This document shows positions 10,614 through 33,841 of a stretch of DNA of 64,000 nt, one piece after another (the stretch's first letter is position 1; the number at the start of each line of letters is the position of its first letter). The position numbers and the translations under genes were made by a program. Origin of the DNA: a virus; the IMG/VR virus record IMGVR_UViG_3300030060_007988. One strand, 5' to 3'. A model generated the notes under the pieces. The model had not been told where the DNA came from and searched no databases. It was given only the letters and a program-made list of their open reading frames with translations.

Positions 10614-11014
10614 TGAATACTCAACTACTATGTACATTTACAGCTCAAAATAATTTACAACAAACTGTTGATGTAATAGTTGATACTTATGATGTTTTAT
10701 ATAATAAAATATTTATTCTATGTAATGTTGAAGATAATCGTGAATTGATGTGTACATATAATATCCAAAAAACACAAAATTTTGAAATATTAAATAATAC
10801 CATAAGTTTACACAGAAAAAAACAAACAAATACACTATATACTATTAATGCATTAAATAGATTAATTGAATCCTTAAATAATGGTGTATTAGATACCTCA
10901 TATAAAATAATATGGGAAAATTATAGAAACTGCTTATTAACAACTAATGAATTAGGTCTTAAACAAATAAATACAAATATTCACGAAATAGTGCGCATAA
11001 AGATTAAAGATTGA
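10613..11014 (+). CDS. Hypothetical phage protein
   Basis: Coupled ORF (TAATG overlap); QLLCTF...LHRKKQTNTLYTINALN. Confidence 0.75.
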   Translation: MNTQLLCTFTAQNNLQQTVDVIVDTYDVLYNKIFILCNVEDNRELMCTYNIQKTQNFEILNNTISLHRKKQTNTLYTINALNRLIESLNNGVLDTSYKIIWENYRNCLLTTNELGLKQINTNIHEIVRIKIKD

Positions 11015-11050
11015 TATTTATATCGGATTGGAAAATAAAACATAAATAAT

Positions 11051-11079
11051 TTTTTTATATGACAAATTTTTGTTATATT
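11051..11079 (+). promoter_or_regulatory. Promoter motif TTTTTTAT-N13-GTTATATT, copy 2
   Basis: Exact match. Confidence 0.75.
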
Positions 11080-11110
11080 ATATAAAAAATAAAAAAATAC
11101 AAAATAGCAA

Positions 11111-11455
11111 ATGAAAGACTTATTATTAGCCTTAGCCTTTTATACTATAGGGCATACATTAATCTGGTTTCAAACCAACGGACAATTTCTTTGGAAATGG
11201 TTTGAAAAAAATCCATTTTTACTTTCAATAACTTTAGGAACAATTATATCATATACATTTATACTTGGTACAAAACACATAGTACTGTATTCAGGTGGAT
11301 TGTTATGGCCTGGAAGACTATTAGGATTTGGAATTGGAATAACCGCATTTACAATATTAACGTTAATATATTTTGGTGAAGGACTTTCATCAAAAACTAT
11401 AACATCACTAATATTGGCAATAGGTTTGGTTTGTATACAGATTTTTTGGAAATAA
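11111..11455 (+). CDS. Small 4-TM membrane protein (DMT/SMR-like topology)
   Basis: Four hydrophobic segments and a FGEGLS loop before the last helix. Confidence 0.65.
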   Translation: MKDLLLALAFYTIGHTLIWFQTNGQFLWKWFEKNPFLLSITLGTIISYTFILGTKHIVLYSGGLLWPGRLLGFGIGITAFTILTLIYFGEGLSSKTITSLILAIGLVCIQIFWK

Positions 11456-11456
11456 T

Positions 11457-11485
11457 TTTTTTATATGCGAAAATTTTGTTATATT
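11457..11485 (+). promoter_or_regulatory. Promoter motif TTTTTTAT-N13-GTTATATT, copy 3
   Basis: Exact match; positioned to drive Hc1-SSB-recA-ncRNA. Confidence 0.75.
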
Positions 11486-11515
11486 GAGTATTAATAAATA
11501 ATAAAGGAGAAAAAC

Positions 11516-11689
11516 ATGGATAGTGTTGAAAAAATTCAAGAAGTATTGGATAACATACAACCTGATGTTACCAAGTTTAGCGGAGGTAATAAATCTGCTG
11601 GAACAAGAATTAGAAAAGCAATGCAGGAAATTAAAAAATTGGCTCAAGACGTAAGAGTTGAGGTCCAAGATAAAAAAAATAGTAAATAA
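11516..11689 (+). CDS. Histone H1-like (Hc1 family) small DNA-binding protein, 57 aa (absent from the ORF track)
   Basis: MDSVEKIQEVLDNIQPDVTKFSGGNKSAGTRIRKAMQEIKKLAQDVRVEVQDKKNSK; GNKSAGTRxRK signature; AAGGAG SD. Confidence 0.85.
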   Translation: MDSVEKIQEVLDNIQPDVTKFSGGNKSAGTRIRKAMQEIKKLAQDVRVEVQDKKNSK

Positions 11690-11708
11690 TAATTAAAAGG
11701 AGTAAATA

Positions 11709-12479
11709 ATGGCATTAGATTTAGAAGCTATAAGACAAAAGTTAAATAACTTACAAAGTCAAACTGGAAAACAGGATAACTTATGGAAACCTGAACCAGG
11801 AAAAAATCAAATTAGAATTGTACCATATCAGTATAATAAAGATAACCCGTTTATTGAATTATACTTTCATTATGATTTAGGTAAGAAAAACTACTTATCA
11901 CCTATTACATTTGGTGAAGCTGACCCAGCAGTTGAATTTGCTGAAAAGTTAAAAGCAACTGGAAATCAAGATGATTGGAAAATGGCAAGAAAACTAGAAC
12001 CAAAAATGAGATGTTATGTACCTGTATTAATTAGAGGTAAAGAATCAGAAGGTGTTAAATTTTGGGGATTTGGTAAAACTGTATATCAAGAACTGTTAAG
12101 TTTCATAGCAGACCCAGATTATGGTGACATTACTGATTTAAGATCAGGTAGAGATGTTGTAGTTGAGTATCTTACACCAGAAGAAGCAGGTAATAGTTTT
12201 GGTAAAACAACAATTAGAGTTAAGCCAAATCAAACAGCTGCAACAGAAGATAAAAATGTTGCTGAAAAAGTTGTAAGTGGTCAAAAAGATATAAACGAAA
12301 TCTTTAGAAAAGTTTCATACGATGATTTAAAAGCTGCATTGGAAACTTGGTTAGATCCAGAAAGTGAATCAGGAGAAAGTCCTTCACCAACTGGAAATGG
12401 TCAAACTACACAAGCAGATACAACAGTTAAAAAGACTGATGATATATCGGCAGCATTTGATAATTTGTTTGATAACTAG
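11709..12479 (+). CDS. Single-stranded DNA-binding protein (T4 gp32-like)
   Basis: LWKPEPGKNQIRIVP, VKFWGFGKTVYQEL, DYGDITD..GRD; acidic/aromatic tail AFDNLFDN. Confidence 0.8.
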   Translation: MALDLEAIRQKLNNLQSQTGKQDNLWKPEPGKNQIRIVPYQYNKDNPFIELYFHYDLGKKNYLSPITFGEADPAVEFAEKLKATGNQDDWKMARKLEPKMRCYVPVLIRGKESEGVKFWGFGKTVYQELLSFIADPDYGDITDLRSGRDVVVEYLTPEEAGNSFGKTTIRVKPNQTAATEDKNVAEKVVSGQKDINEIFRKVSYDDLKAALETWLDPESESGESPSPTGNGQTTQADTTVKKTDDISAAFDNLFDN

Positions 12480-12489
12480 GAGGATATAG

Positions 12490-13617
12490 ATGGCAAAGAA
12501 AGTAACAACAAATAGAGATTCTTTAGCAGACATACTTGCTGACAGTTTAAATAAAAAGTTTAAAGACTATAAGGTTGCTTATTTTCTTGACGGTACTGAA
12601 GAAACTCCAACCGACCTAACAGAATGGATAAGCACAGGGTCATCAATGTTAGACATTGCAATTTCAAACAGAAAAAATGGTGGAATACCAGTTGGTAGAA
12701 TTACCGAAATAACTGGTCTGGAAGGAAGTGGTAAAAGTCTTATGGCTGCACATATTCTTGCAAATACACAAAAGCAAGGTGGTATGGCCGTATACATTGA
12801 TACTGAAAATGCTATGAACGAAGAATTTGCTCGAGCAGTAGGTATAGACATTAAAAATATGTTATACATACAATTGGAAACAATAGAGGAAATATTCGAG
12901 GTTATGGAAAACATAGTAACAAAAGTTAGGGAAGGTGATAGTGATAGGCTAGTTACCATAGTAGTTGATTCATTGGCTGGAGCTACAACTAAAGTTGAAA
13001 GCGAAGCTGACTATAGTAAAGACGGATGGGCTACTAGTAAGGCTATCATTTTGTCAAAAGCAATGAGAAAAATTACTCAAATGATTGGAAGACAGAGAAT
13101 ATGTGCTGTATTTACAAATCAGCTTAGACAAAAAATGGGAGTAATGTTTGGTGATCCTTGGACTACTTCTGGAGGAAAGGCAGTTGCTTTTCACTCTAGT
13201 TGTAGATTAAGGTTAAAGCCAATGGGTCAGATAAAGGCCAAGGTAGATGGCCAAGACCAGGTAATAGGAATAAAAACAGTTGCACAAGTTGTAAAAAATA
13301 GAATGGGACCACCATTAAGAAAATCACAATTTGAAATATACTTTGAAAGTGGAATTGATGATTTAGGTGGATGGTTACAGGTTATGAAAGACTACAAACT
13401 TGTAAAACAAGGAGGAAGTTGGTATACATATACTGATAAATCTGGTAAAGACCATAAATTTATGTCAAAGGATTGGAATGATTTACTAACAAACAATCCA
13501 GACCTAAAGCAAGAAATTTATGATTTAATAACTGAAACTGTTATTATGAACTATAAGGTTGATAATTTTGGAATTGATGATATTGAAATTAGCAATGAAC
13601 CGGTACCTGAAAATTAA
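12490..13617 (+). CDS. recA: RecA/UvsX recombinase
   Basis: GGIPVGRITEITGLEGSGKS (Walker A), YIDTENA, IVVDSLA (Walker B), FTNQLRQK, TSGGKA. Confidence 0.95.
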   Translation: MAKKVTTNRDSLADILADSLNKKFKDYKVAYFLDGTEETPTDLTEWISTGSSMLDIAISNRKNGGIPVGRITEITGLEGSGKSLMAAHILANTQKQGGMAVYIDTENAMNEEFARAVGIDIKNMLYIQLETIEEIFEVMENIVTKVREGDSDRLVTIVVDSLAGATTKVESEADYSKDGWATSKAIILSKAMRKITQMIGRQRICAVFTNQLRQKMGVMFGDPWTTSGGKAVAFHSSCRLRLKPMGQIKAKVDGQDQVIGIKTVAQVVKNRMGPPLRKSQFEIYFESGIDDLGGWLQVMKDYKLVKQGGSWYTYTDKSGKDHKFMSKDWNDLLTNNPDLKQEIYDLITETVIMNYKVDNFGIDDIEISNEPVPEN

Positions 13618-13633
13618 TATATCCTTATATGAT

Positions 13634-13921
13634 GGGAAGCAAGTCTTCCCTGAGTCTTACGATAACGGCCACCTTCACGTGGTGTAAGACGTTACGGTCA
13701 AAAGTCCTCACGAGTATAATGACTATTTTGATCAACTAAGAGCCGTAAATTTTAGTAGTATTAGAGGTAACATTGATTGGTCCAGTGACCCCAATTAAAT
13801 GTAAATAATATGACAGAACAAATAGTTTTGATGTAAAGCTGATACCAAGTGTCTTTTAACCGTCACTGTTGAAAGAAATAGAAAATACATCTAAATATTA
13901 GCTTCTAATACTACATTTTTT
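13634..13921 (+). ncRNA. Unassigned highly structured RNA (~290 nt) with a kissing-loop pseudoknot
   Basis: About ten stems, including a 13-bp long-range helix 13755-13767/13902-13914; loop-loop complementarity AGTGAC/GTCACT; several G-U pairs work only on the + strand; ends in a U-tract. Confidence 0.75.
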
Positions 13922-13932
13922 CTCTTAAAAAT

Positions 13933-13961
13933 TTTTTTATCCCAATTGTTTTGGTTATATT
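13933..13961 (+). promoter_or_regulatory. Promoter motif TTTTTTAT-N13-GTTATATT, copy 4
   Basis: Exact match upstream of the exonuclease-helicase genes. Confidence 0.75.
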
Positions 13962-13987
13962 TAATTAAATAAATAGATTAGAAGATT

Positions 13988-15034
13988 ATGAACAAAAAGT
14001 ATTTTTCAATTTTAGAAACACTAAAAGAAAATAAAAACACAGAATCAGGACCAAATGATAGGATATTACTTATTGATGGACTAAATACTTTCATTAGAAG
14101 TTTTGCAGCAAATCCAGTTACAAATGACGATGGAATTCATGTAGGAGGAATAACAGGATTTTTAATGTCAATAGGCTATGCAATTAGAAACATAAAACCA
14201 ACAAGAGTAATTATATGCTGGGATGGAAAAGGTGGTAGCCAAAGGCGTAGAAAATTGTTTCCGGAATATAAAGGAAATAGGCGTGTAAGATCTAGGTTAA
14301 CAAGACATGTTAGTATTGGAACTATGGAAGATGAAAAAGTTGCAATGAAAAACCAATTACTAAGACTTTCACAATATATTGATACATTACCTCTTCACAT
14401 GGTATCAGTGGAGAATATTGAAGCTGATGATTCTATTGCATATATATGCGAGCAATTGTATCCAAAGAGTCAAGTATTTATTATGTCAACTGATAAAGAC
14501 TTTATGCAACTTGTAAGTAATCGTGTAACAGTATGGTCACCAACAAAAAAGAAGTACTACTTTGCAGATACAATTAAAGAAGAATATGGAATCCATCCAA
14601 ATAATTTTTTAATGTTTAGAACAATAACAGGTGATGGTTCAGATAATATACCTGGAATACGTGGTGCAGGACTAAAGACATTAATAAATAGAATGCCTAT
14701 AATTGCAGGTAAAGAAAACATAACGGTTGATCAAATTGTTGAATTCTGTAAGAAAAATACAAATATTAAAATATTAAAAACAATTTCAGAGTCGGCTGAT
14801 TTATTAAACTTAAATTATGACTTAATGCAATTAAACAATGTTGATATATCAGGCTCGGCAAAATTAAAAATAAATAATTGTGTAAAGGAAAAAATACCAA
14901 GATTAGTTAAATATGAATTTTTAAAAATGATGATAGAGGATAACATAAACAATGCAATCAAAAACCCAGAGTTTTGGTTAAGAGATACTTTTCTATCGTT
15001 AGATACTTATGCAGGAATGACACATGGCAGATAA
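13988..15034 (+). CDS. rnh: 5'-3' exonuclease/flap endonuclease (T4 RNase H-like)
   Basis: LLIDGLN, WDG, RRKLFPEYKGNR, EADD, STDKDFMQL, GDGSDNIPGIRGAG. Confidence 0.92.
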   Translation: MNKKYFSILETLKENKNTESGPNDRILLIDGLNTFIRSFAANPVTNDDGIHVGGITGFLMSIGYAIRNIKPTRVIICWDGKGGSQRRRKLFPEYKGNRRVRSRLTRHVSIGTMEDEKVAMKNQLLRLSQYIDTLPLHMVSVENIEADDSIAYICEQLYPKSQVFIMSTDKDFMQLVSNRVTVWSPTKKKYYFADTIKEEYGIHPNNFLMFRTITGDGSDNIPGIRGAGLKTLINRMPIIAGKENITVDQIVEFCKKNTNIKILKTISESADLLNLNYDLMQLNNVDISGSAKLKINNCVKEKIPRLVKYEFLKMMIEDNINNAIKNPEFWLRDTFLSLDTYAGMTHGR

Positions 15035-16373
15035 ACTATCAGAATTTGGATATAATTTTCAGATAAAATTAATAGCATCACTATTTACAGATAGGGCATA
15101 CTTACAACAAATATCTGATATTTTAGAACCTAATATGTTTGAAAGCGAAGCTAATTATTTTATAGTTGATACTATTAAAAAATATTTTCAAACATACAAA
15201 TCTCCACCTACTATGGAAGTAATGAAAGTACAGGTTGAAGAAATTGATAATGATGTACTAAAGACAACTGTAGTAGATCATCTAAAGGATTCATACAAAC
15301 AATTAGAATCAGATGACCTTGAATTTGTAAAAGAAAAAACTTTAATGTTTTGTAAAAATCAAAAACTAAAAAAGGCAATCATTAGGTCTGTTGATTTACT
15401 AAAGGACAACGATTTTGAATCAATTAAAACAGTAATTGATGAATCACTAAAGGCAGGTTCAGATAGAGATGTCGGCCATGAATATTTAGAGGAAATAGAT
15501 TTAAGATATGAAGAAAGTGTTAGAAATGTAGTAACTACAGGATGGGAAGTAATTGATGATCTTGCTGATGGTGGTTTAGGTAAAGGTGAACTTGGAGTTA
15601 TGGTCGCCCCTGCAGGTATTGGTAAGTCGTGGGCACTAGTAAATATAGGTGCAAATGCTGTTAAAGCAGGACTAAAAGTTATACATTATACACTAGAATT
15701 AAATGAACACTATGTAGGTCTAAGATATGATAGTGTATTTACAGGTATTGCTGCACAAGATTTAAAATACAATATTGATGATGTAAAGAAAAGGCTTACT
15801 AGTGTAGAAGGAAATCTTATTGTAAAGTATTATCCAACTAAAGGTGCATCTGTGAATTCAATATCTGCACATATTGAAAAATGTATGGTACAAGGATTTA
15901 AACCTGATATGGTAATAGTAGATTATGCAGATCTATTAAGAGGTTCTGGAAAATCTAGAGAACTAAGACATGAACTTGGAAATCTATATGAAGACCTTCG
16001 AGGAATTGCAGGTGAACATGAAATACCAGTTTGGACAGCATCTCAAGCAAATAGGTCAGCTTTGGAGGAAGATGTTATCGGTGCAGAAAAAATAGCAGAG
16101 TCATATGCAAAAATAATGACAGCTGACTTTGTAATATCATTAAGTAGAAAAATTGAAGATAAGATAGCAGGCACAGGAAGATGGCATGTTATTAAAAATA
16201 GATTTGGTCCTGATGGTATTACACTACCAAGTAAAATGAATGCGAGTAATGGTCAAATAGATATCTATGAATCGGATTCAATACAAGGTCAAGAAACCAG
16301 AAAAGATATGAATAATCATTCTGAGTATTTAAGAAAAATGATGGCAAATAAATATAAAGAACTTGATAGTTAA
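15024..16373 (+). CDS. DnaB-like replicative helicase (T4 gp41-like)
   Basis: APAGIGKS (Walker A), YTLE, IVDYADLL (Walker B), WTASQANR, KNRFG. Confidence 0.92.
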   Translation: MADKLSEFGYNFQIKLIASLFTDRAYLQQISDILEPNMFESEANYFIVDTIKKYFQTYKSPPTMEVMKVQVEEIDNDVLKTTVVDHLKDSYKQLESDDLEFVKEKTLMFCKNQKLKKAIIRSVDLLKDNDFESIKTVIDESLKAGSDRDVGHEYLEEIDLRYEESVRNVVTTGWEVIDDLADGGLGKGELGVMVAPAGIGKSWALVNIGANAVKAGLKVIHYTLELNEHYVGLRYDSVFTGIAAQDLKYNIDDVKKRLTSVEGNLIVKYYPTKGASVNSISAHIEKCMVQGFKPDMVIVDYADLLRGSGKSRELRHELGNLYEDLRGIAGEHEIPVWTASQANRSALEEDVIGAEKIAESYAKIMTADFVISLSRKIEDKIAGTGRWHVIKNRFGPDGITLPSKMNASNGQIDIYESDSIQGQETRKDMNNHSEYLRKMMANKYKELDS

Positions 16374-16411
16374 CTTTATATATGTATATTTTGATATTTA
16401 TAGTTACATAC

Positions 16412-19439: not shown

Positions 19440-20372
19440 ATGAAAAACTATTTAATTGGGTCAAATAATTATGCACTACTTGCTTCTTATCTTTTAAGTG
19501 ACATAACAATTATACCAACAAGTAAATTTGAAGCAAACAATGTAGAACCTGAATTCTTACCTAACACTCCGGAAATAATTAATATTGTAAATTCATTAGG
19601 ACTAAAATATAAGGTAAAAATATTAAATGCATTTTTTGATGATAGAGGCAAAATATCAACAGTACCTTCAGATTCATTTAAAAATGTATATGCACTATCA
19701 ACTAGGGGAAAACTTGCAGTTGAAAATAGTTACTTTGAAAAATTTAAAGGTAGCATGGAATATGTTTCAATAAAAAATAAAGGACCATTTGAAAGTTTCT
19801 ACTTACTATTTAAAGAGATTAAGAAAAATATTGTTCTTAAGGATATGATAGATTCTGAAATAGATTCTATTGGTGTTAAAGATAGTAACATAATATTATC
19901 AGATGGAAATATACTTGAATATAAAAGACTAATATGGACTGGTGATATAAAAAATTTAGATAAAAAACTTAATTTATTTACAAAAAAAATATATGTATAT
20001 GTATGTGAATACAATAACGAGGCTGATAAAAAAATGTCAAACTTTTTTAGCTTTGGATATTCAATAGGTAAAACATACTTTAGAACTATTTATTTAAAAG
20101 ACAAAATTGAATATCATTGTATGAAGAGAACATTTAAAGATGAAATTGATGGCAATAAAATAATAAACAGTTTTAATACAGAACAAATAATTGATAATTT
20201 AAGAAAAACAAACATGTATAATGTAGATCTAATAAGTATGTACTCACAGTGGAATTTAGGTTATTCAATTAGTCAAGCATACCGTGATTGTAAAGAATTG
20301 TATGAATATTACAATTTAGATAAAAAAATAGGTGATAATATTTTTAAATCCCAACAAAATTTGTTATATTAG
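19440..20372 (+). CDS. Hypothetical protein, possibly a degenerate FAD-dependent oxidoreductase/mutase fold
   Basis: N-terminal YLIGSNNYALLASYLL resembles a decayed Rossmann motif; DGNILEYKRLIWTG segment. Confidence 0.4.
   Translation: MKNYLIGSNNYALLASYLLSDITIIPTSKFEANNVEPEFLPNTPEIINIVNSLGLKYKVKILNAFFDDRGKISTVPSDSFKNVYALSTRGKLAVENSYFEKFKGSMEYVSIKNKGPFESFYLLFKEIKKNIVLKDMIDSEIDSIGVKDSNIILSDGNILEYKRLIWTGDIKNLDKKLNLFTKKIYVYVCEYNNEADKKMSNFFSFGYSIGKTYFRTIYLKDKIEYHCMKRTFKDEIDGNKIINSFNTEQIIDNLRKTNMYNVDLISMYSQWNLGYSISQAYRDCKELYEYYNLDKKIGDNIFKSQQNLLY
20342..20370 (+). promoter_or_regulatory. Promoter motif copy 5 (TTTTAAAT-N13-GTTATATT) heading the modification operon
   Basis: Same 13-nt spacing; two substitutions in the upstream box. 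Confidence 0.65.
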
Positions 20373-20398: not shown

Positions 20399-21241
20399 AT
20401 GAATATTTACAAAAATCTTAATGAAGCATTCTGGCATGAACTTAATAGTATATCCATAATGGGTAAAAATGTAGAAAGCCGTGGTACAAAACAAAAAGAA
20501 ATACTTTTTAGAAATTTTACCATAGAAGATCCAACAGACTTAGATATAGTTTGGCCAAGTAGAAAATTTAATACAACATATACACTTGCTGAATTTCTTT
20601 GGTATCTGTCAAGAAATCCCAACTCAGTTAACATTGGAAAATTTGCAAGAATTTGGTTAAACATAAAGGATAATGAAGATAATGTAGAATCAAATTATGG
20701 CTGTTATGTATTTGGTAGTCAATGGGACTGGGCAGTAAAAGAATTGATAGATGACAAGGATAGTCGACGTGCAACATTTGTAATTGGTCAACCATATCAC
20801 AAAACAAAAAATCCTAATGATATACCATGTACACAATATCTTCAATTTTTTATACGTGACAATAAACTTCATATGGGAACATACATGAGAAGTAATGATA
20901 TTGTATTTGGTATGTCAAATGATATTTTTATATTTTGTTTGTTTCAACAATTAATGTTTAATGAATTAAAACAACATTACACTGATTTACAAATAGGTAC
21001 ATACCATCACCATGCGGGAAGTTTACATCTATATGAAACTCATTATGATATGGCTGCACAAATATTGGAGGGTGATAGGGCATCTGAGGATTATGAATTC
21101 TCAAGCAATATATTTACTCTTAAACCAAATGTAACATTAGATTACATACAACAAAATAATCTATATTTACCAGCCAAAGATATGACTAAAGAAGAAATTG
21201 GTGAATATGCAAAAACAACTGGTGAAAAATTATTTATATGA
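20399..21241 (+). CDS. dCMP hydroxymethylase-like thymidylate-synthase-family enzyme (T4 gp42-like)
   Basis: DSRRA, catalytic PCT, MRSNDIVFGMSND with Asp at the specificity position (E. coli ThyA N177 / T4 gp42 D179), GSLHLY. Confidence 0.85.
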   Translation: MNIYKNLNEAFWHELNSISIMGKNVESRGTKQKEILFRNFTIEDPTDLDIVWPSRKFNTTYTLAEFLWYLSRNPNSVNIGKFARIWLNIKDNEDNVESNYGCYVFGSQWDWAVKELIDDKDSRRATFVIGQPYHKTKNPNDIPCTQYLQFFIRDNKLHMGTYMRSNDIVFGMSNDIFIFCLFQQLMFNELKQHYTDLQIGTYHHHAGSLHLYETHYDMAAQILEGDRASEDYEFSSNIFTLKPNVTLDYIQQNNLYLPAKDMTKEEIGEYAKTTGEKLFI

Positions 21242-21519
21242 AAAAGAAATCAATACTAAATAAGGCTGATGAAATAATTAATAATCGTTCAGAAGAAAAA
21301 GAAAGAATGTACGGTCCTTTTAGTGAAGGAATGGAAAGGGCTGCAAAAATAGCAAGTGGCATGACAGGTAAAGACTTCCAAGCTGAAGATATGTATGCTG
21401 CATTGGTTGCACTAAAACTATCAAGACATTCATATAATTATCGTGAAGATAATTTATTAGATTGTGTTGCATATTTAGGTGCATTAGATAATTACATAAA
21501 GGAGAATAAGAATGGCTAA
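21238..21519 (+). CDS. DUF6378-like protein
   Basis: IL..A.EII..R....YG, LVALKLSR, DNLLDCVAY. Confidence 0.7.
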   Translation: MKKKSILNKADEIINNRSEEKERMYGPFSEGMERAAKIASGMTGKDFQAEDMYAALVALKLSRHSYNYREDNLLDCVAYLGALDNYIKENKNG

Positions 21520-21979
21520 TTTTGATAATGAATGTAAAGATTTAAATGTAAAAGATTCATATAGTGAATCAACAACTCATTTGCACGATATAATGAGTCA
21601 CCAAAAGTATATGCAAGAATATACTTATAAGTTAGATTTTTCAGAAATGACTATTGCTGAAATTATGAAGTTTTGGCATGCAAACAATCATGCAATTATT
21701 GATGAAATACATGAAATGACAGATGCTCTAGGTGGTATCAAGGATGGCTCAGGTAGTGCAGTTTGGAAATACTGGAAACAGGATCATAAGAAATACGAGA
21801 GTATGAAAATATCAGATCTATCTGAAGGAGATAGAAAAGAGTTATATATGGAATTTGTTGATGTACTACATTTCCTAATGAACTATGCAGCATCAATAGG
21901 ATTGGATGCAAAAACAGTATATAACTATTATTTTGCAAAAGCTGAGGAAAATAAGAAAAGACAACACCGAGGATATTAA
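21512..21979 (+). CDS. dCTPase/dUTPase (T4 gp56-like all-alpha NTP pyrophosphatase)
   Basis: NEC..L, IDEIHE, SAVWKYWK, ELYMEFVDVLHF and RQHRGY parallel T4 gp56 (SAVWKKWK, FELVDIFHF, RQDNGY). Confidence 0.88.
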   Translation: MANFDNECKDLNVKDSYSESTTHLHDIMSHQKYMQEYTYKLDFSEMTIAEIMKFWHANNHAIIDEIHEMTDALGGIKDGSGSAVWKYWKQDHKKYESMKISDLSEGDRKELYMEFVDVLHFLMNYAASIGLDAKTVYNYYFAKAEENKKRQHRGY

Positions 21980-22395
21980 TGGACAAACAAAGTAGATACG
22001 ACATGGCATATATGAAAATGGCTAAAGAATGGAGTCAACTATCATTTGCAAATAGAATGAAGGTTGGTGCAATTATAGTCAAAGACCAGCAAATTATTAG
22101 TGATGGTTTCAATGGTATGCCAAGTGGTATGGATAATTGTTGTGAAGGAGATGATGGACAAACAAAAAAGGAAGTTCTACATGCAGAGGCAAATGCAATT
22201 CTTAAATGTGCAAAACATAGGGGAGGTTGTGCGGGTTCAACTTTATATATTACATTAAGTCCATGCCAAGATTGTGCAAAACTAATTCACCAAGCAGGAA
22301 TTAAAAGAGTTGTTTATAGTGATATCTATAGACATGGAAATGGATTAGAATTCCTAAATAGTTGCGGAATAAAAACTGAAAAAATTAATCTATGA
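21979..22395 (+). CDS. cd: dCMP deaminase
   Basis: VGAIIV, GFNGMPSG, HAEANA, SPCQDC. Confidence 0.93.
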   Translation: MDKQSRYDMAYMKMAKEWSQLSFANRMKVGAIIVKDQQIISDGFNGMPSGMDNCCEGDDGQTKKEVLHAEANAILKCAKHRGGCAGSTLYITLSPCQDCAKLIHQAGIKRVVYSDIYRHGNGLEFLNSCGIKTEKINL

Positions 22396-22446
22396 AAACA
22401 CCTGCTTTGAACTTTTTAACTTGTATTTATATGAGAGGTAAAAAAT

Positions 22447-22722
22447 ATGGTATATGCAAATAAAAAAATAGATTGGAAAATAAATATGGTTACGGTCGGC
22501 AATTGTGATGAATGCAAAAGAGTACATCCATTAGTTTCAAAATTCTGTGCAAAAAATAACATTAAGTTAAACATAATTCCTAATGCGGAATATGATCCAA
22601 AGAAATGGAATTTTGTAAATCAAATATGGCCATTTTTTATTTTGGAAAAAAATGGTGAAAGTGTTTTAAAAATTAATGGATATAGAGGTGAATTTAAAAA
22701 AATTGAAAGGATGATATTATGA
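22447..22722 (+). CDS. Thioredoxin/glutaredoxin-like protein
   Basis: CDEC motif and a cis-Pro-like WPFFIL segment. Confidence 0.65.
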   Translation: MVYANKKIDWKINMVTVGNCDECKRVHPLVSKFCAKNNIKLNIIPNAEYDPKKWNFVNQIWPFFILEKNGESVLKINGYRGEFKKIERMIL

Positions 22723-24014
22723 AAATAGGAATAGGTAAAATGGGGAAATCAATGTTATTTTCTCAAAGTAAATGGGGATTGATTGGTGGCGATGCTGCAC
22801 CATCAATACTTTACACATCACTGGCATCAATAAATCCAAACATTACATTTTACATTGTAGGACGTTCTGACTTTTCAAAATTAACCAATGATGAAAAATC
22901 AAGACTATTTCCAAACAATAATGTTATAGACTGTTGGTCAGAAGCTGATATGAAAAATGCACATAGCAAATTTCATGCACCACTTGAATATGTAAACCAA
23001 CACAACATAAAATTGGATGCATTTGTTATGATGTCAGGAATGTGTAGTAGTGTTAATATGAATGATATGATTTGGAGTGTAAAGAATCCAGGAAAATATT
23101 CAAAGACATTATATCAATTCCATCACTATGCAGGTCCAATAATTCACTTTCTAAACATGACGCAAGTTCCAATGTTTACAATTAGTGAAGATCCTAGACA
23201 CATAAGACTTAATGCAAAAGATTTATTCAATAGGGAAAAATTTTGTTTAAGTCAAGAAAACTCAGTACAGAAAGTAAAGCATATAGTTAATTATGATGAT
23301 CAATCAACTGTTGAGTATGATATACCTGTTAAGTATGGTCAAACTGAAAAGATATTTTTAATTGGTGAAACTAAAAGGAATACACTAAAACTAAAAAAGG
23401 ATATTCCAATAACAATGTTTATGAATAGTCACACAATGAAATCAAAAGAAACCAGAAAACCGTTTATAGATGAATACATACACAGTAACTTTCCAGATTC
23501 AAAGGTTTATGGTAAATGGCCAAAGGAACTACTAGAAAGTGATAATAGATATGAAGCTATTAGAATGGGGGATATCATGGATGAAGTATTAAGAACAAAA
23601 TATACATTAGTGGTATCAATAAAACCAGGGTTTGTAACTTGTAAACCTTGGGAAATGATAAATTTTGGAATCATACCATTTTTACATCCAACATATGACA
23701 CTAACAATCTACTAGGATTTCCAGAATGGCTACATGTAAAAGATGCAAATGATTTTAAAAATAAGGTTGAATTTTTAGAAAACAATCCTGATAGGTATAT
23801 GAAGTTACGTGGATTACTACAAGATATGTTAGAACCAGAATTTTATGATGGAACATATATGAACAATTTAATTATGAGTAATGTATGTAATATGATAGGT
23901 AAAGAATATGAAAATGCTAATCAAGGAACATCAGTAAAAATGTCATCATTTTCAGAAAAAGAAAGTGTACAGAAAAAATTAAAAAAAGATAAAAAACAAA
24001 TGGAGTTATTTTAA
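22719..24014 (+). CDS. DNA glycosyltransferase, T4 beta-glucosyltransferase-like (GT-B fold)
   Basis: MKIGIGKMG vs BGT MKIAIINMG; ISEDPR vs FTDIR (catalytic Asp); FVTCKPWEM...YDT vs FITLRVWET...FDT; C-terminal QMELF. Confidence 0.75.
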   Translation: MKIGIGKMGKSMLFSQSKWGLIGGDAAPSILYTSLASINPNITFYIVGRSDFSKLTNDEKSRLFPNNNVIDCWSEADMKNAHSKFHAPLEYVNQHNIKLDAFVMMSGMCSSVNMNDMIWSVKNPGKYSKTLYQFHHYAGPIIHFLNMTQVPMFTISEDPRHIRLNAKDLFNREKFCLSQENSVQKVKHIVNYDDQSTVEYDIPVKYGQTEKIFLIGETKRNTLKLKKDIPITMFMNSHTMKSKETRKPFIDEYIHSNFPDSKVYGKWPKELLESDNRYEAIRMGDIMDEVLRTKYTLVVSIKPGFVTCKPWEMINFGIIPFLHPTYDTNNLLGFPEWLHVKDANDFKNKVEFLENNPDRYMKLRGLLQDMLEPEFYDGTYMNNLIMSNVCNMIGKEYENANQGTSVKMSSFSEKESVQKKLKKDKKQMELF

Positions 24015-24379
24015 TGAATGATACAAGACCTAAAACAATATTTTGTGACATAGACGGAACATTGGTTGAACATATGAAACCTAGTGAAGCAACTATGCCT
24101 TTTTCATGTATGAAGCCTTTACCAGGTGCAGTTGATAAATTATTAGAATGGGAAAGAAAAGGATATAACATTATACTTACAACTGGTAGAAGAAATTGTG
24201 CAAGAAAACAAACAGAAGAACAATTAGCAAATGCAGGTATAGTTTATGATCAATTGATTATGGGATTTGGTGGTGGAAAGAGATATCTAATCAATGATAG
24301 AAAACCTAATGGTGAAGAAGACTATGCAGTTGCAATAAACATAGAAAGAAATACAGGAATTGGAAATATAGAATTATGA
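24014..24379 (+). CDS. HAD-family phosphatase
   Basis: IFCDIDGTL (DxD), LTTGR, INDR. Confidence 0.85.
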   Translation: MNDTRPKTIFCDIDGTLVEHMKPSEATMPFSCMKPLPGAVDKLLEWERKGYNIILTTGRRNCARKQTEEQLANAGIVYDQLIMGFGGGKRYLINDRKPNGEEDYAVAINIERNTGIGNIEL

Positions 24380-24927
24380 ATTACGCCGAATTAAAAACAA
24401 CAGTGATGTCAGAAATAAATGATGTATTAACATCAGTAGATGAAAAATCGTTAGACATAATGTGTGACATAATACAATCATCAAATAAAATAGTTGTGGC
24501 TGGTGCTGGTAGAATGGGGTATTCAATAAAATGCTTTGGTATGAGATTAGGTCATATGGGATACCAAGCTTGGACTTTAGGAGATTCAACTGTACCTCAA
24601 ATAGGAAAAGGTGATTTATTAATAGTTGCATCAGGAAGTGGTGAAACTGAAACCATCTACAATATAGTTTTAAAAGCAAAACAGAATCGTGCAAAGGTGA
24701 TATTAATAACAACTAAAAAGGAATCAAGAATGGCTTCTTCATCAGACCATTTAGTAATTATGAATGCCGTTTCTGCCTTTACAGGTGATAGAGGAACTAT
24801 TCAGCCTATGAAAACATATGTAGAGCAGTCATTACTTATCTTATTGGATATTATGGCACTAAAACTTATGCAAGAGTCTGGTGAGACAAATTTCACAATG
24901 TCAAAAAGGCATTCACTTTTAGAGTAG
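24376..24927 (+). CDS. SIS-domain sugar-phosphate isomerase (HxlB/PHI-like)
   Basis: VAGAGRMG...FGMRLGHMG...GDLLIVASGSGET...HSLLE. Confidence 0.85.
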   Translation: MNYAELKTTVMSEINDVLTSVDEKSLDIMCDIIQSSNKIVVAGAGRMGYSIKCFGMRLGHMGYQAWTLGDSTVPQIGKGDLLIVASGSGETETIYNIVLKAKQNRAKVILITTKKESRMASSSDHLVIMNAVSAFTGDRGTIQPMKTYVEQSLLILLDIMALKLMQESGETNFTMSKRHSLLE

Positions 24928-24932
24928 AAAAT

Positions 24933-25631
24933 ATGAAAAACAAATTTATGATAGGTGCATCTTTAATATGTGGAAATCAAGCAGATTTAAAAGGTGACGT
25001 TGAATTACTAAAAAAATCAGGTCAAGTTGACTTTTTACATGTTGATACTATGGATGGATTGTTTGTACCTAGATATGGAATGTATCCTGAACAAGTAAAA
25101 CACATTAAAGAAATATGCGACATACCTGTAAATGTACATATGATGGTATCAAATCCTGAACCATTCATTGACTGGTTTGCAGAATCAGGTGCTGATATAA
25201 TTACAATTCATGTGGAACCTAATCAGCAATTAGGAAGAACTATCGCAATGATAAAAAAGGCAGGATGTAAAGTTGGACTTGCATTTAATATACATTCACA
25301 ATATCATATCATTGAAAGTTTTATAGACGATATAAGTTTAGTTATGTTAATGGCAATAAATCCAGGAATACTAGGACAAGGTTGTTGGCCAGGAATCTAC
25401 AATAAGATTGATAGATTTAGAAAGTATTTGGACAACAACGGAAGAAGAGATGTTATAATTGAGATAGACGGAGGTGTAACACCAGAAACAGCTCCTAAAT
25501 TAATAAAGGCAGGTGCAAATATGTTAACTTGTGGAACTGGAACAATATATAGACCTAAAGAGGCACCATTAGATATTAAGATTGGTCAATTTAAAAATAA
25601 AGTAAATAGGGAATTAGAATATGCAGTATAA
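24933..25631 (+). CDS. rpe: Ribulose-phosphate 3-epimerase family (Rpe/AlsE)
   Basis: LHVDTMDGLFVP, VHMMV, IHVE, MAINPG, IEIDGGV. Confidence 0.88.
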   Translation: MKNKFMIGASLICGNQADLKGDVELLKKSGQVDFLHVDTMDGLFVPRYGMYPEQVKHIKEICDIPVNVHMMVSNPEPFIDWFAESGADIITIHVEPNQQLGRTIAMIKKAGCKVGLAFNIHSQYHIIESFIDDISLVMLMAINPGILGQGCWPGIYNKIDRFRKYLDNNGRRDVIIEIDGGVTPETAPKLIKAGANMLTCGTGTIYRPKEAPLDIKIGQFKNKVNRELEYAV

Positions 25632-27249
25632 AGTATTATTAACAACTTCAGGTATAGGTAGTAGATTAGGTGAAATAACCGACTATACAAATAAAGGATT
25701 AGTCAAGGTTGGTAAAAAACCAGCAATATCTTACATTATTGAATCATATCCAAAAACAATGGAATTTGTTGTAACCATAGGATACTTTGCAGACCATGTA
25801 AGACAATTTCTAAACATTGCATATCCTGATAGAAAATTTACGTTTGTGGAAATTGATAACTATTCAGGTGAAGGAAGTAGTTTAGGATATTCTCAATTAT
25901 GTGCAAAGGAACATTTACAATGCCCATTTATATATAATGCATGCGATACTATAGTACTTGATACAATACCTGAACCTGATAGGGATTGGGTAGGTGGATT
26001 CAAACAAAAAGGATCCAGCCAATATGACAGCTATTGTGTTACAAATGGTGATGTTAAAGAGTTTTATACTAAAGGAAATATAGATTCTGATTATGTATAT
26101 ATTGGACTAATAGGTGTTAATGATTATGAAAACTATTGGGAAACAATGGAAAAACTATATAATGAAGATCATAATATGAGATCATTATCAGATCTATATT
26201 GTGTAAAGAATCAACTAAAAGAAGGCAAAAAAATATATCACAAACAATTTATGACATGGTATGACATAGGAAATGTTGAGTCTTTAAATAAAGCAAGGAC
26301 TGATATTCCAGACTCATTTAATATTTTAGATAAGTTAGAAGAATCTATTTATTTATTTGATGACCATGTTATTAAGTTTTTTGCAAATGAAAAAATGTCA
26401 ACACAAAGAGTTGATAGAGCATCTATCCTTGATGGTATGGTACCAAAGATTGTTGCTAAATCCCCAAACTTTTATAGATATGAATATGCCGAAGGTGATT
26501 TATATTCAAAGGTTGCAAATCCAATTACATTTATTAAACTATTAGATTGGGCAAAGGAAAATTTATGGAAAGAAAATGATGTTGTTAGTGAAACAGATTT
26601 TAGAAAAGCATGTATAGATTTTTACTATGAAAAAACAATATCAAGAATAAATAAGTTTTATGATTCAACTCGTAACCTTGATAAAGTAGAAACGATTAAT
26701 GGTTTGCAAACACCAACAATAAATGAAATGCTTAAAGCCATAAATAGTGATTGGTTATGTAAGCCAAAACAAACAGGCTTTCATGGTGACTTTATATTAG
26801 ATAATATAATTTTAGGAGAAGAAGGATTTACTTTACTTGATTGGAGACAAAATTTTGGAGGTCTTATTGAGTGTGGTGATATGTATTATGACTTGGCAAA
26901 ACTTAATCACAACTTAGTAGTTAATCATGAAATAGTAAACAATAATCAATTTAAAGTTACAAAATCAAAAGATAATATTATAGTTGATATACATAGACGT
27001 CAATCTCTAATTGAATGTCAACAGGTTTATCATAAATGGATTGTTGATAACGGATATGATTTAAGTAAAGTAAAAGTTTTAACATCTTTGATTTGGTTAA
27101 ATATGTCCGCACTTCACCATCATCCATTTGATGAATTTTTATATTATTATGGAAAATACACATTATTAAAAACATTAGGAGAATTAGAAAATGAATACGT
27201 TCCAACCTACAAACTTCAGTCCTCTAACAAAGTCTCAAACATACTTTAA
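25621..27249 (+). CDS. Sugar nucleotidyltransferase fused to an APH/choline-kinase-like phosphotransferase
   Basis: N-terminal TTSGIGSRL...NKGL...WYDIG; C-terminal FHGDFILDN...LLDWR...YYDLAKL. Confidence 0.85.
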   Translation: MQYKVLLTTSGIGSRLGEITDYTNKGLVKVGKKPAISYIIESYPKTMEFVVTIGYFADHVRQFLNIAYPDRKFTFVEIDNYSGEGSSLGYSQLCAKEHLQCPFIYNACDTIVLDTIPEPDRDWVGGFKQKGSSQYDSYCVTNGDVKEFYTKGNIDSDYVYIGLIGVNDYENYWETMEKLYNEDHNMRSLSDLYCVKNQLKEGKKIYHKQFMTWYDIGNVESLNKARTDIPDSFNILDKLEESIYLFDDHVIKFFANEKMSTQRVDRASILDGMVPKIVAKSPNFYRYEYAEGDLYSKVANPITFIKLLDWAKENLWKENDVVSETDFRKACIDFYYEKTISRINKFYDSTRNLDKVETINGLQTPTINEMLKAINSDWLCKPKQTGFHGDFILDNIILGEEGFTLLDWRQNFGGLIECGDMYYDLAKLNHNLVVNHEIVNNNQFKVTKSKDNIIVDIHRRQSLIECQQVYHKWIVDNGYDLSKVKVLTSLIWLNMSALHHHPFDEFLYYYGKYTLLKTLGELENEYVPTYKLQSSNKVSNIL

Positions 27250-27553
27250 GACTTGGGGCGAGAATAAGTCTGAATTATTAAAAGATCTATTCACAGACGA
27301 TATATTATTACAAGACTGGGATAATAAAGCAACTGGTATAGATGAAGTATTAGAAGCAAATGCAGCAATATTTGCCGGTGTAACAGATATTAAAGCAGTT
27401 CCTTTAATGATAAGAGTTGTTGATAACATAGCCTATTGTGAACTAGAAGTATTAGTAAAGGCAGAAGGTACTATAAGTAAAATTTTAGTATTGGATATAA
27501 TAACTTTTGATGAGGAAGGAAAAATTAAATCAATAAGAGCATATAAAGGGTAA
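27191..27553 (+). CDS. SnoaL/NTF2-like protein
   Basis: LFTDDILLQDWD...VLDIITFDEEGKIKSIRAY. Confidence 0.75.
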   Translation: MNTFQPTNFSPLTKSQTYFKTWGENKSELLKDLFTDDILLQDWDNKATGIDEVLEANAAIFAGVTDIKAVPLMIRVVDNIAYCELEVLVKAEGTISKILVLDIITFDEEGKIKSIRAYKG

Positions 27554-27555
27554 AC

Positions 27556-28803
27556 ATGAAACACGCAACAATAATTCCTTTAATAGGTGGCATGACACTT
27601 GCAAATAAAAAGATAACTGGTAAAGATCCAGAAGTTATATTATCATACTCACCGTTTAAGGCAAACGATAGTCACATAACTAAATATCTTCCAAAAGTAC
27701 CATATAAAGTATTAGATGATATGGGAGATGATGAAAAAAATATATTAATTGAAAAACTAAAAGGAAAACTTGATTTTGTTTCAACTGTTTGTCCTTGTGC
27801 AGGATTGGCAGGTACAAATACTGCACCTAAAACAAGTAGTAAAGGTCGTGGAGCACATGCAGAACAAAATCAATGGATGTATAAAAGTGCAAAGCTAATT
27901 TTAGAAGATATAAAACCAAAAGTATTTTGGGGAGAAAATGCGCCAGGCCTATTTACTAAAATGGGTGTAGAGGTTGCAGATAATCTTAGAAAAATTGGTG
28001 AAGATGCAGGATATAGCTTTTCAATGATTAAGACAAATACAGAGCTACATGGAATACCTCAGAGAAGAATTAGAACATTTTATTTTTTCTGGGATAGTCC
28101 TTCCCCACCACTCTTTAATTGGGTTAAGAGAGATACTCCAAAACTATTAGACTATCTTGGTGAAATACCAAAAGATGCAACACAATTTGATATGAGAATA
28201 TGGATGGATCCTGTTACTGTTAAATATCCACCATATAAATTTTTATTAGATAAATTAGGTTTGACTCATGAACAAATGGTTAAAAAAGTTGGAAAGGGAA
28301 CTGTATTTAGATATATGCAAGACAATGATTTATTTGATGAGTGCCTAGACTGGCTAAAAGTACACGCACCAAATGATGGTCCTAGTGGAGGAAAACCAGG
28401 AACAAATACTTATATTGATATCATTAATCATATAAAAAATAAATTGGCTGATGGGAAAGGATATTGGGATAGTTCACCGCATTTATTTCACGAATCATTT
28501 AATGCAGTTATTGGAAGAAATATGTTTGATGGTGTACATCCAATTGAAAATAGATATATGAGTGTTAGAGAATATATTCATATGATGGGAATGCCTCATG
28601 ACTTTGAACTTGACAATATTAAAAACATAAATCATATTGCACAAAATGTTCCTGTAGGTACGGCATCAGATATGACCCAACATGTTGTTGATTATATAAA
28701 CGGAAAGTCATCATTATCAGATTCAAAGTTTTTAAAACAAGATAATGTTTCTAGAAAAACTGATGTAATTACAAATGAAAAACAACTTGAACTTTTTTCA
28801 TAA
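27556..28803 (+). CDS. C5-cytosine DNA methyltransferase-like protein with atypical motif I
   Basis: Motif I IPLIGG (normally FxGxGG), IV CPCAG, VI ENAP, VIII PQRRIRTF, X AQNVP; C-terminal QLELFS. Confidence 0.8.
   Translation: MKHATIIPLIGGMTLANKKITGKDPEVILSYSPFKANDSHITKYLPKVPYKVLDDMGDDEKNILIEKLKGKLDFVSTVCPCAGLAGTNTAPKTSSKGRGAHAEQNQWMYKSAKLILEDIKPKVFWGENAPGLFTKMGVEVADNLRKIGEDAGYSFSMIKTNTELHGIPQRRIRTFYFFWDSPSPPLFNWVKRDTPKLLDYLGEIPKDATQFDMRIWMDPVTVKYPPYKFLLDKLGLTHEQMVKKVGKGTVFRYMQDNDLFDECLDWLKVHAPNDGPSGGKPGTNTYIDIINHIKNKLADGKGYWDSSPHLFHESFNAVIGRNMFDGVHPIENRYMSVREYIHMMGMPHDFELDNIKNINHIAQNVPVGTASDMTQHVVDYINGKSSLSDSKFLKQDNVSRKTDVITNEKQLELFS

Positions 28804-31899: not shown

Positions 31900-33840
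<1,941 letters not shown>

Positions 33841-33841
<1 letters not shown>

Follow-up and report, generated by a model that had tools for sequence, protein, structure and literature searches.

Known members of the thymidylate synthase family

It is textbook knowledge that phages can encode deoxycytidylate (dCMP) hydroxymethylases, and that an Asn or an Asp at one position of the active site separates those members of the thymidylate synthase (TS) family that act on dUMP from those that act on dCMP. The present analysis concerns a gene of this family in 64 000 nucleotides of an uncultured marine phage, IMG/VR record IMGVR_UViG_3300030060_007988; this whole stretch is referred to below as the window. 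The open reading frame (ORF) in question, at positions 20399-21241, is called here the TS homologue, and position numbers such as 143 or 177 given without an enzyme name are those of Escherichia coli ThyA.

Replacements at the discriminating position, N177D in TS and D179N in T4 gp42, swap the base preference (Graves 1992; Liu and Santi 1992; Hardy and Nalivaika 1992, in the account given by PMC8670742 and PMC6400193). For the T4 dCMP hydroxymethylase (gp42, or dCH), a study of the ternary complex defined a hydroxymethylation signature, namely an acidic residue (Asp or Glu) at the third place ahead of the catalytic Cys (Cys-3; D145) together with Ser/Thr-x-Tyr (S94 and Y96). These residues place the water that attacks the exocyclic methylene, and an Asp at Cys-3 can be taken as the mark of a hydroxymethylase, since the T4 D145N mutant is inactive in hydroxymethylation (PMC6400193). 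RB69 gp48, DLP3 gp80 and other phage TS homologues were described as flavin-dependent 5-hydroxy-dCMP (5hodCMP) synthases, which possess Asp177, an acidic residue at 143 and, uniquely, Asn at position 169 (Lee et al. 2026, PMC13326640). In the CMP 5-hydroxymethylase MilA, the residues A176 and K133' underlie the preference for CMP (PMC5175136). Finally, the DNA of Enterococcus phage VPE25 is refractory to bisulfite and to MspI but can be cut by PvuRts1I, which fits glucosylated 5-hydroxymethylcytosine (hmC) (PMC4999554).

A probable dCMP 5-hydroxymethylase

The TS homologue is a genuine protein of the TS fold. It matches PF00303 well above the Pfam cut-off (E 1.8e-16, 60.5 bits, cut-off 24.3), it contains every universal TS catalytic residue, and its AlphaFold2 model, built with 113 homologues as input, reached a mean predicted local distance difference test score (pLDDT) of 96 and a predicted template-modelling score (pTM) of 0.94. 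From the fold, the active-site residues, their conservation, the homology ranking and the gene context, all observed directly, we consider it likely that the product of this ORF is a deoxycytidylate 5-hydroxymethylase that depends on folate and belongs to the T4 gp42 type. The sites on which this reading relies are as follows.

20399-21241, + strand: TS homologue, ORF of 280 amino acids, predicted folate-dependent dCMP 5-hydroxymethylase
20591-20593, + strand: E65 (T4 E60, E. coli E58), activation of methylene-tetrahydrofolate (methylene-THF), invariant
20690-20698, + strand: S98-N-Y100 (T4 S94-N-Y96), water-positioning Ser and Tyr, from the alignment of VESNYG with INSNYG
20765-20770, + strand: R123-R124, phosphate-binding arginines from the partner subunit, R123 being Arg versus Lys in the CMP-specific MilA (PMC5175136)
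20819-20833, + strand: D141-I-P-C144-T145, with C144 catalytic and D141 (Cys-3) equivalent to T4 D145
20885-20923, + strand: motif MRSNDIVFGMSND, with R164 and S165 binding phosphate and ribose
within 20885-20923, + strand: D167 (E. coli D169, folate site) and G171 (E. coli G173), from the alignments
within 20885-20923, + strand: D175, last residue of the motif (T4 D179, E. coli N177), cytosine determinant, from the alignments
21074-21241, + strand: C-terminal extension, residues 226-280, present in MilA and absent from T4 gp42

The bases of the motif at 20885-20923 are ATGAGAAGTAATGATATTGTATTTGGTATGTCAAATGAT, and their translation MRSNDIVFGMSND corresponds to residues 163-175 of the ORF. An earlier note on this DNA, made from the sequence alone, had placed the motif at exactly these coordinates and had equated its Asp with D179 of T4 rather than with Asn177 of ThyA; the strings it gave for comparison, RSNDVVFGF-RND for T4 gp42 and RSCDVFLGL-PFN for E. 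coli ThyA, recur exactly in our alignments. The equivalence is borne out as well. Indeed, three alignments made independently (phmmer against PDB chains, MAFFT of 261 sequences, and L-INS-i of the reference enzymes) bring D175 into one column with E. coli N177 and T4 D179, and the ranking of similarities favours cytosine-acting enzymes. In this column, Asp was found in 118 of the 119 close homologues (one has Glu) and in 135 of 136 distant representatives of 50%-identity clusters, i.e. in 253 of 255 relatives overall, whereas both dUMP enzymes compared, E. coli ThyA and the dUMP hydroxymethylase gp29 of SPO1, have Asn. As Asp is near-universal among relatives, D175 represents a fixed character of the family and no stray or chance substitution.

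As for the product, the residues of the T4 hydroxymethylation signature are all found in the TS homologue (D141 and S98-N-Y100, plus E65). Across an alignment of 113 sequences (30-96% identity), the catalytic C144 and E65 (T4 C148 and E60) are invariant, as are D141 and Y100, and S98 is at least 90% conserved. The counterpart of D141 is L143 in E. coli and Asn in Xp12, and T145 replaces His147 of TS (table of sites). A non-acidic residue at position 143, the criterion for a methylase (drawn from one fetched enzyme making 5-methylcytosine (5mC), that of Xp12, and from statements in PMC13326640 and PMC6400193), is thus seen in Xp12 and ThyA, and the TS homologue has Asp. At the folate site, D167 (T4 D171, E. 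coli D169) is Asp in 253 of 255 relatives and Asn in none of the 255; RB69 gp48 reads RSQNCAVVM here, that is Asn169 and Val173, where the TS homologue keeps Asp (D167) and Gly (G171). The deoxy-specific pair S165 and R123 (T4 S169 and R123') is also present instead of the Ala and Lys of MilA, and a CMP hydroxymethylase of the MilA/BcmA type was rejected on the absence of these ribose-pocket residues (A176, K133'), Ser165 and Arg123 standing in their place (PMC5175136). Of 19 active-site positions compared in E. coli numbering, only position 83 sets the TS homologue apart from T4 gp42 (Ile for Val), the other 18 being the same; six positions separate it from ThyA, six from Xp12 and seven from RB69 gp48. 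The earlier note had held that the product could not be read from the sequence. On this point we differ, because three published signatures discriminate between the products and all of them point to hydroxymethyl-dCMP; three residue signatures published recently (hydroxymethyl, hydroxy and methyl) agree on the product even for this distant member of the family.

Similarity to described enzymes

Searched by blastp, the TS homologue is closest to the proteins of Ralstonia phage RsoM2USA (2e-46) and Enterococcus phage VPE25 (6e-35) and to T4 gp42 (2e-21), followed by weaker matches to Xp12 (1e-14), SPO1 gp29 (6e-14), ThyA (6e-13) and RB69 gp48 (3e-12). With phmmer against PDB chains, MilA (2e-25, 93 bits) and T4 dCH (1.8e-17, 67 bits) precede the true thymidylate synthases (1.8e-10 or worse), and the entries 9IQC, 9IQU and 9IR2, identified as an RB69-type enzyme (2.4e-161 to RB69 gp48), score 33 bits. 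Foldseek likewise returns MilA (2e-21, TMq 0.79, 304 columns), T4 dCH (2.5e-18, TMq 0.67, TMt 0.76) and then thymidylate synthases, the higher coverage of MilA being owing to the C-terminal extension (residues 226-280), which is common to both proteins and absent from T4 gp42 and which forms helices at 247-252 and 264-278 in the AlphaFold2 model. A quick maximum-likelihood tree places the TS homologue in a clade of 25 rows (Shimodaira–Hasegawa-like approximate likelihood-ratio test, SH-aLRT, 99), sister to a clade of 23 rows with T4 gp42 and RsoM2USA, RB69 gp48 and SPO1 gp29 falling elsewhere. At the nucleotide level, a megablast query of 12 kb had no match among 50,697 phage records.

T4 gp42 (PDB 1B5D, 6A9A) has in common with the TS homologue the fold, the Cys, the Glu, the cytosine Asp, the Cys-3 Asp, Ser-x-Tyr, the folate Asp and the phosphate arginines, and the TS homologue has for neighbours a gp56-type dCTPase and a transferase distantly related to the beta-glucosyltransferase (BGT), much as in T4, where b-gt adjoins gene 42. 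It is unlike the TS homologue in identity (30%) and in its lack of the 55-residue C-terminal extension; in addition, a deoxynucleoside monophosphate (dNMP) kinase of the T4 gp1 type was not found in the incomplete records of the lineage, and DUF6378, encoded next to the TS homologue, was not detected in the T4 stretches compared. MilA from Streptomyces rimofaciens (PDB 5B6D, 5JNH) is the best match among solved proteins by both sequence and structure, with Asp at 177 and 143 and the C-terminal extension, but its Ala176 and Lys133 favour CMP and it serves bacterial antibiotic synthesis, not phage DNA (PMC5175136). The homologue of the Enterococcus phages VPE25 and VFW (38% identity) is the second-closest from a cultured phage and has the same signature residues; in VPE25, a dUTPase-fold gene and a T4-type b-gt come after it. 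VPE25 is the closest phage to the window protein for which the DNA was tested, the role of the VPE25 enzyme being itself predicted. VPE25 and VFW differ from the window in that they are siphoviruses infecting a Gram-positive host and that DUF6378 was not detected as a partner.

The enzymes of RB69 (gp48), DLP3 (gp80) and HY126 (PDB 9IQC, 9IQU) resemble the TS homologue in the TS fold, Asp177 and the acidic residue at 143, and their phages resemble the window in cytosine glycosylation, which is a prediction for the window, and in a HAD phosphatase and a nucleotidyltransferase-kinase sugar module nearby (PMC13326640). RB69 gp48 departs from it in Asn169 and Val173 and is the least similar of all references (23% identity). 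The enzyme of Xanthomonas phage Xp12, a dCMP methyltransferase responsible for 5mC DNA, shares Asp177 and an adjacent dCMP deaminase, but has Asn at Cys-3 and Pro after the Cys, where the TS homologue has Asp and Thr, and a dihydrofolate reductase (DHFR) gene next door. E. coli ThyA and SPO1 gp29 share the fold, the Cys nucleophile, Glu58, the phosphate Arg and Ser, and His and Tyr at the 3'-OH; they are unlike the TS homologue in Asn177, and ThyA moreover has Leu143, His147 and Trp83 against Asp, Thr and Ile.

Gene context and synteny

The TS homologue lies in an AT-rich replication region (30.9% GC) in which all genes are on the + strand. Upstream, the order is gp32, RecA, 5'-3' exonuclease, DnaB, the small and large subunits of ribonucleotide reductase, an ORF of 65 residues and one of 310 residues. 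The TS homologue is followed by the DUF6378 protein, a MazG-like protein of 155 residues, a dCMP deaminase, a CxxC protein and a transferase of 431 residues; then by a HAD phosphatase, a SIS isomerase, an Rpe-family epimerase and a nucleotidyltransferase-kinase of 542 residues; and lastly by a SnoaL-like protein, a C5-methyltransferase-like protein, PolB, Cpn10 and Cpn60. The features that matter here are listed below.

19440-20372, + strand: ORF of 310 amino acids directly preceding the TS homologue, without matches in Pfam, PHROG or NCBIfam
21238-21519, + strand: DUF6378 protein of 93 amino acids, PF19905 E 1.3e-10
21512-21979, + strand: gp56-type MazG-like dCTPase/dUTPase homologue of 155 amino acids, PHROG 173 NTP pyrophosphohydrolase 1.5e-15
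21979-22395, + strand: dCMP deaminase, PF00383 7e-25, PHROG 174 2.9e-57
22719-24014, + strand: GT-B glycosyltransferase of 431 amino acids, distant relative of the T4 beta-glucosyltransferase
24014-27249, + strand: sugar-activation module, with HAD from 24014, SIS from 24376, Rpe from 24933 and a nucleotidyltransferase-kinase fusion from 25621
24933-25631, + strand: Rpe/AlsE-family epimerase, adjoining the SIS isomerase
27556-28803, + strand: C5-cytosine-methyltransferase-like gene at the end of the operon, PF00145 5e-14, below the NCBIfam dcm cut-off

The family to which the TS homologue belongs is large in marine metagenomes, with 646 matches in a word-indexed search, many of them from Tara, and 6243 proteins at E <=1e-3 in an exhaustive one. 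The window was compared with a near-identical 81-kb record (49% complete) and with a 170.8-kb IMG/VR relative (about 80% complete; its locus is designated L019), and the surroundings of further homologues (L008, L009 and L011 to L013) were also inspected.

The start of the DUF6378 gene overlaps the stop of the TS homologue by 4 nt (ATGA), and the gene coordinates of the relatives show the same arrangement. DUF6378 occupies this position in L008, L011, L012, L013 and L019, with 68-91% identity as compared with 54-74% for the enzyme, and it may be an obligate partner of the hydroxymethylase. The label ‘phosphofructokinase’ which PHROGs attaches to this protein is surely wrong, and a search for functional literature on DUF6378 found none.

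The MazG-like protein, encoded 270 bp downstream of the TS homologue, is similar by blastp to gp56 of RB69 (6e-25) and of T4 (4e-21); in T-even phages, gp56 excludes dCTP and returns dCMP. The protein of 431 residues is probably a DNA glycosyltransferase acting on the hydroxymethyl group, as judged from profiles and a structural model. Comparison by hhalign of its family with the BGT family (T4, VPE25 and L011) gave a probability of 90% (E 1.5e-6, 239 columns), and the three best PDB matches of its model (pLDDT 91) by Foldseek are T4 BGT (1j39, 1nzd and 1qkj, E about 1e-8). A close relationship to BGT was discarded, blastp against the T4 and L011 enzymes being blank and PF09198 giving no match, so that only profile-profile and fold comparisons link the two.

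Within the sugar-activation module, the SIS protein (24376-24927) passes the NCBIfam cut-off for HxlB, a 6-phospho-3-hexuloisomerase (169.8 versus 160 bits), and matches arabinose-5-phosphate isomerase (KdsD) weakly (1e-6); the blastp matches of the module to RB69 are marginal (3e-4 to the p052 kinase, 0.002 to p055). A UDP-arabinose route of the RB69 type was accordingly dropped as the default, and the activated sugar probably does not arise through the arabinose-5-phosphate route of RB69, since the SIS protein is HxlB-like and is adjacent to an epimerase of the Rpe/AlsE family.

Synteny with L019 (enzyme 74% identical) extends over 9959-16406 of that record against 20399-28803 of the window, in the order TS homologue, DUF6378, dUTPase, HAD phosphatase, nucleotidyltransferase/kinase, glycosyltransferase, methyltransferase-like protein and PolB. 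Between the two, the replication proteins are 69-90% identical, compared with 27% for the transferase and 21.5% for the nucleotidyltransferase-kinase. In L019, the places of the SIS and Rpe genes are taken by a pyridoxal phosphate enzyme and a phosphomannomutase, and the dCMP deaminase is absent from the operon. What is kept is the enzyme (74%), DUF6378 (91%), the HAD phosphatase (72%) and the C5-methyltransferase-like gene (53%). The sugar module thus appears to diversify, and the pattern of the operon fits a constant modified base with a variable sugar. In L011, which is syntenic with the window (enzyme 54% identical), a T4-type beta-glucosyltransferase (PF09198; blastp 2e-38 to T4 b-gt) comes directly after the TS homologue and DUF6378, with a dUTPase-fold gene and PolB next in order; L012 reads TS homologue, DUF6378, dUTPase and PolB; and in L013, ThyX is encoded 6 kb upstream of TS homologue, DUF6378 and dUTPase, from which it follows that the Asp-type homologue of L013 is not the dTMP synthase.

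Several observations on these loci stand by themselves. A trimeric dUTPase-fold gene (PF00692) is found in L008, L011, L012, L013 and L019 where the window has the gp56-type gene, an apparent non-orthologous displacement of the step that clears dCTP and dUTP. L009 (10853-14701 of a 160-kb NCBI contig; enzyme 51% identical) has the Asp-type homologue alone, without a DUF6378 or dUTPase gene and adjoining an intein-containing (LAGLIDADG) gene of 1282 amino acids. The ORF of 310 residues recurs at the same position in L008 and L019 (35% identity), and its language-model features point to amine-oxidase-like flavoproteins of the FAD/NAD_binding_8 type, which is to be taken as a lead only. The C5-methyltransferase-like gene is conserved beside the transferase in L019, though such a genome is expected to be without unmodified cytosine.

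Proposed pathway and alternative explanations

By homology to T4 dCH, we infer the following chemistry. Cys144 would attack C6 of dCMP, and Asp175 would hydrogen-bond to and protonate N3/N4 of the cytosine, so that dCMP would be accepted and dUMP would not. Glu65 and Asp167 would open 5,10-methylene-THF, the methylene passing to C5. No hydride transfer would take place; instead, a water held by Asp141, Ser98 and Tyr100 would add to the exocyclic methylene, giving 5-hydroxymethyl-dCMP (hm-dCMP) and unoxidized THF. The gp56-type pyrophosphatase would destroy dCTP and return dCMP as substrate, some kinase together with the host nucleoside diphosphate kinase would raise hm-dCMP to the triphosphate, and the phage PolB would incorporate it in place of dCTP. 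As to the predicted state of the virion DNA, the BGT-like transferase would decorate the hydroxymethyl group with a sugar activated by the adjacent genes. Among the partners of such a pathway, a gp56-type dCTPase and a distant BGT-related GT-B protein were seen, and DHFR was not found in the window or in the 170-kb relative, both incomplete, an absence that fits a reaction leaving THF unoxidized.

Several points weigh against this reading. The TS homologue is only 30% identical to T4 gp42, and the product signatures rest on few characterized enzymes; in particular, D169N is sufficient to predict a hydroxylase (PMC13326640), but an Asp169 enzyme need not in every case be a hydroxymethylase. Neither a gp1-type dNMP kinase (window, 81-kb record and 170.8-kb relative) nor a kinase of the thymidylate-kinase family (Tmk/Pfam; 81-kb record, the only one so searched) was found in these incomplete records, and tblastn of the window for the RB69 p045 nucleotide kinase was blank. 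Placement in the tree is tentative, because T4 gp42, RB69 gp48, SPO1 gp29 and ThyA are all on long branches. Among isolates, PolB matches do not exceed 25.5% identity, and hence there is no cultured relative with known DNA chemistry. The HAD phosphatase and the nucleotidyltransferase-kinase resemble the UDP-arabinose module of RB69 and DLP3 (PMC13326640). Finally, 5mC phages such as Xp12 have this layout too, with a deaminase beside an Asp-type homologue and neither ThyA nor ThyX detected (bioRxiv 10.1101/2024.12.05.627091); ThyX and a second PF00303/TS gene were not found in the window (tblastn), in the 81-kb record (49% complete) or in the 170.8-kb relative (80% complete). With a deaminase adjacent and no dTMP synthase found in these records, some room is left for an Xp12-like 5mC scheme. 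ThyX, a second TS gene, a gp1-type kinase and DHFR all went undetected in the 81-kb and 170.8-kb records, and this lineage seems to draw its dTMP from the host and to depend for hm-dCMP on an unrecognized kinase.

Among other products, 5hodCMP made by a flavin-dependent synthase like RB69 gp48, DLP3 gp80 or HY126, with the sugar ether-linked to the 5-hydroxyl, is a quite unlikely one. These synthases also have Asp177 and the acidic residue at 143, their best solved-structure match is MilA too (PMC13326640, Table 1), the HAD phosphatase, SIS isomerase and nucleotidyltransferase-kinase recall, through weak matches, the gp51, gp55 and gp52:53 module of RB69, and a flavoprotein-like ORF, itself a language-model lead only, lies directly upstream. 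What speaks against such a synthase is the absence of the diagnostic D169N (D167 is never Asn among the relatives, and G171 is kept where RB69 gp48 has Val), the low score of 9iqc as compared with MilA and T4 dCH, the rank of RB69 gp48 as the weakest reference, the pairing of the enzyme with a true T4-type beta-glucosyltransferase in syntenic relatives, and the likeness of the SIS protein to HxlB rather than to arabinose-5-phosphate isomerase. A dCMP methyltransferase like that of Xp12, whose deaminase would turn part of the 5-methyl-dC nucleotides into thymidine nucleotides and so replace TS, also seems improbable. It would account for a dCMP deaminase about 740 bp downstream of an Asp-type homologue, the layout of Xp12, and such a layout is enriched on cytosine-modified metavirome contigs (bioRxiv 10.1101/2024.12.05.627091); the lack of detected ThyA and ThyX and the C5-methyltransferase-like gene in the same operon would agree with it. 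The Asp at Cys-3, however, is invariant in the family where Xp12 has Asn and ThyA Leu, and the Ser-x-Tyr water site is present; DHFR was not found in the window or the 170-kb relative, whereas that of Xp12 adjoins its gene; a methyl group offers no acceptor to a BGT-like transferase and sugar-activation genes; the operon of the 170-kb relative has no deaminase; and similarity to the Xp12 enzyme is low (23%, 1e-14).

If hm-dCMP is indeed the product, it might still not be destined, or not solely, for hmC DNA, the deaminase leading to hm-dU nucleotides or DUF6378 supporting an undescribed reaction; to this we give a slight chance. Some phage deaminases encoded in cis with Asp-type homologues do deaminate 5hm-dC nucleotides in vivo (bioRxiv 10.1101/2024.12.05.627091). 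DUF6378, moreover, invariably goes together with the gene and varies less than the enzyme does. Yet a gp56-type dCTPase and a BGT-like transferase fit the hmC scheme of T4, the operon of the 170-kb relative, otherwise the same, lacks the deaminase, and T4 itself carries a dCMP deaminase alongside its hmC pathway. An ordinary thymidylate synthase, or a dUMP hydroxymethylase of the SPO1 gp29 type supplied with dUMP by the neighbouring deaminase, is very improbable indeed. The TS fold with all universal catalytic residues, and the fact that this is the sole TS-family gene in the records searched, would suit it, as would the dCMP deaminase and NTP pyrophosphatase that also accompany the SPO1 enzyme. 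Against it stand the Asp that replaces Asn177, present in both dUMP enzymes compared and able to alter base preference when swapped, as well as Thr for His147, Asp for Leu143, Ile for Trp83 and the absence of the TS C-terminal tail; the best NCBIfam TS equivalog model scores 54.5 bits against cut-offs of 108-405, and the relative L013 also has ThyX. Synthesis of hm-dCMP for hmC DNA, as in T4, is our preferred explanation.

A broader proposal can be made more tentatively, and we hold it to be possible though doubtful as a whole: an abundant and wholly uncultured lineage of marine phages would possess a modular operon for cytosine hypermodification with the hydroxymethylase as its unvarying first step, the DNA of the window would contain 5-(glycosyl-oxymethyl)cytosine with a new, non-glucose sugar, and DUF6378 would be a new part without which dCMP hydroxymethylation does not proceed.

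Other features of the window

Besides the full PolB, a short ORF similar to family-A polymerases occurs at 7293-8624 (PF00476 2.5e-9). After PolB come an Mpo1-like (DUF962) protein (31583-31879) and the Cpn10/Cpn60 pair (31900-33841). From 35900 to 57055, about 20 kb are occupied by glycan-biosynthesis genes, which include two GT4, four GT2 and one TOD1/MUCI70-like glycosyltransferase; a D-2-hydroxyacid dehydrogenase, a CMP-sugar cytidylyltransferase, NeuB and a UDP-GlcNAc 2-epimerase; and a GFO/IDH/MocA oxidoreductase, two SDR epimerase/dehydratases and a UDP-glucose dehydrogenase. A carbamoyltransferase of 546 amino acids is encoded inside this region (46644-48284); a 5hmC carbamoyltransferase is known from metaviromes (PMC8670742).

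Annotation and implications

The name ‘thymidylate synthase’ is used by JGI for the homologues, by the matching PHROGs and by the GenBank/RefSeq lines of T4 gp42, VPE25 and Xp12, and all NCBIfam thymidylate synthase equivalog models fall far below their cut-offs. The warning in the earlier note against an automated ‘thyA’ call was thus well founded, such naming being misleading. Metavirome contigs with modified cytosine are enriched in Asp177 homologues of TS, and metagenomes are already screened in bulk with this rule (PMC8670742; bioRxiv 10.1101/2024.12.05.627091; PMC13326640). Both the enzyme class and the Asn/Asp rule have been known for a long time, so that the present finding adds only a new lineage to them. 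More interesting than the enzyme itself are the identity of the sugar, the coupled DUF6378, the missing hm-dCMP kinase and the methyltransferase-like gene.

In any case, this gene and its hundreds of homologues from marine metagenomes should not carry a thymidylate synthase annotation. If they are hydroxymethylases, they would denote a widespread lineage of ocean phages in which cytosine is replaced in the DNA. Sensitivity to restriction and to CRISPR would then be affected, and so would recovery in some library preparations, methylation calls by bisulfite or enzymes, and nanopore base-calling of viromes.

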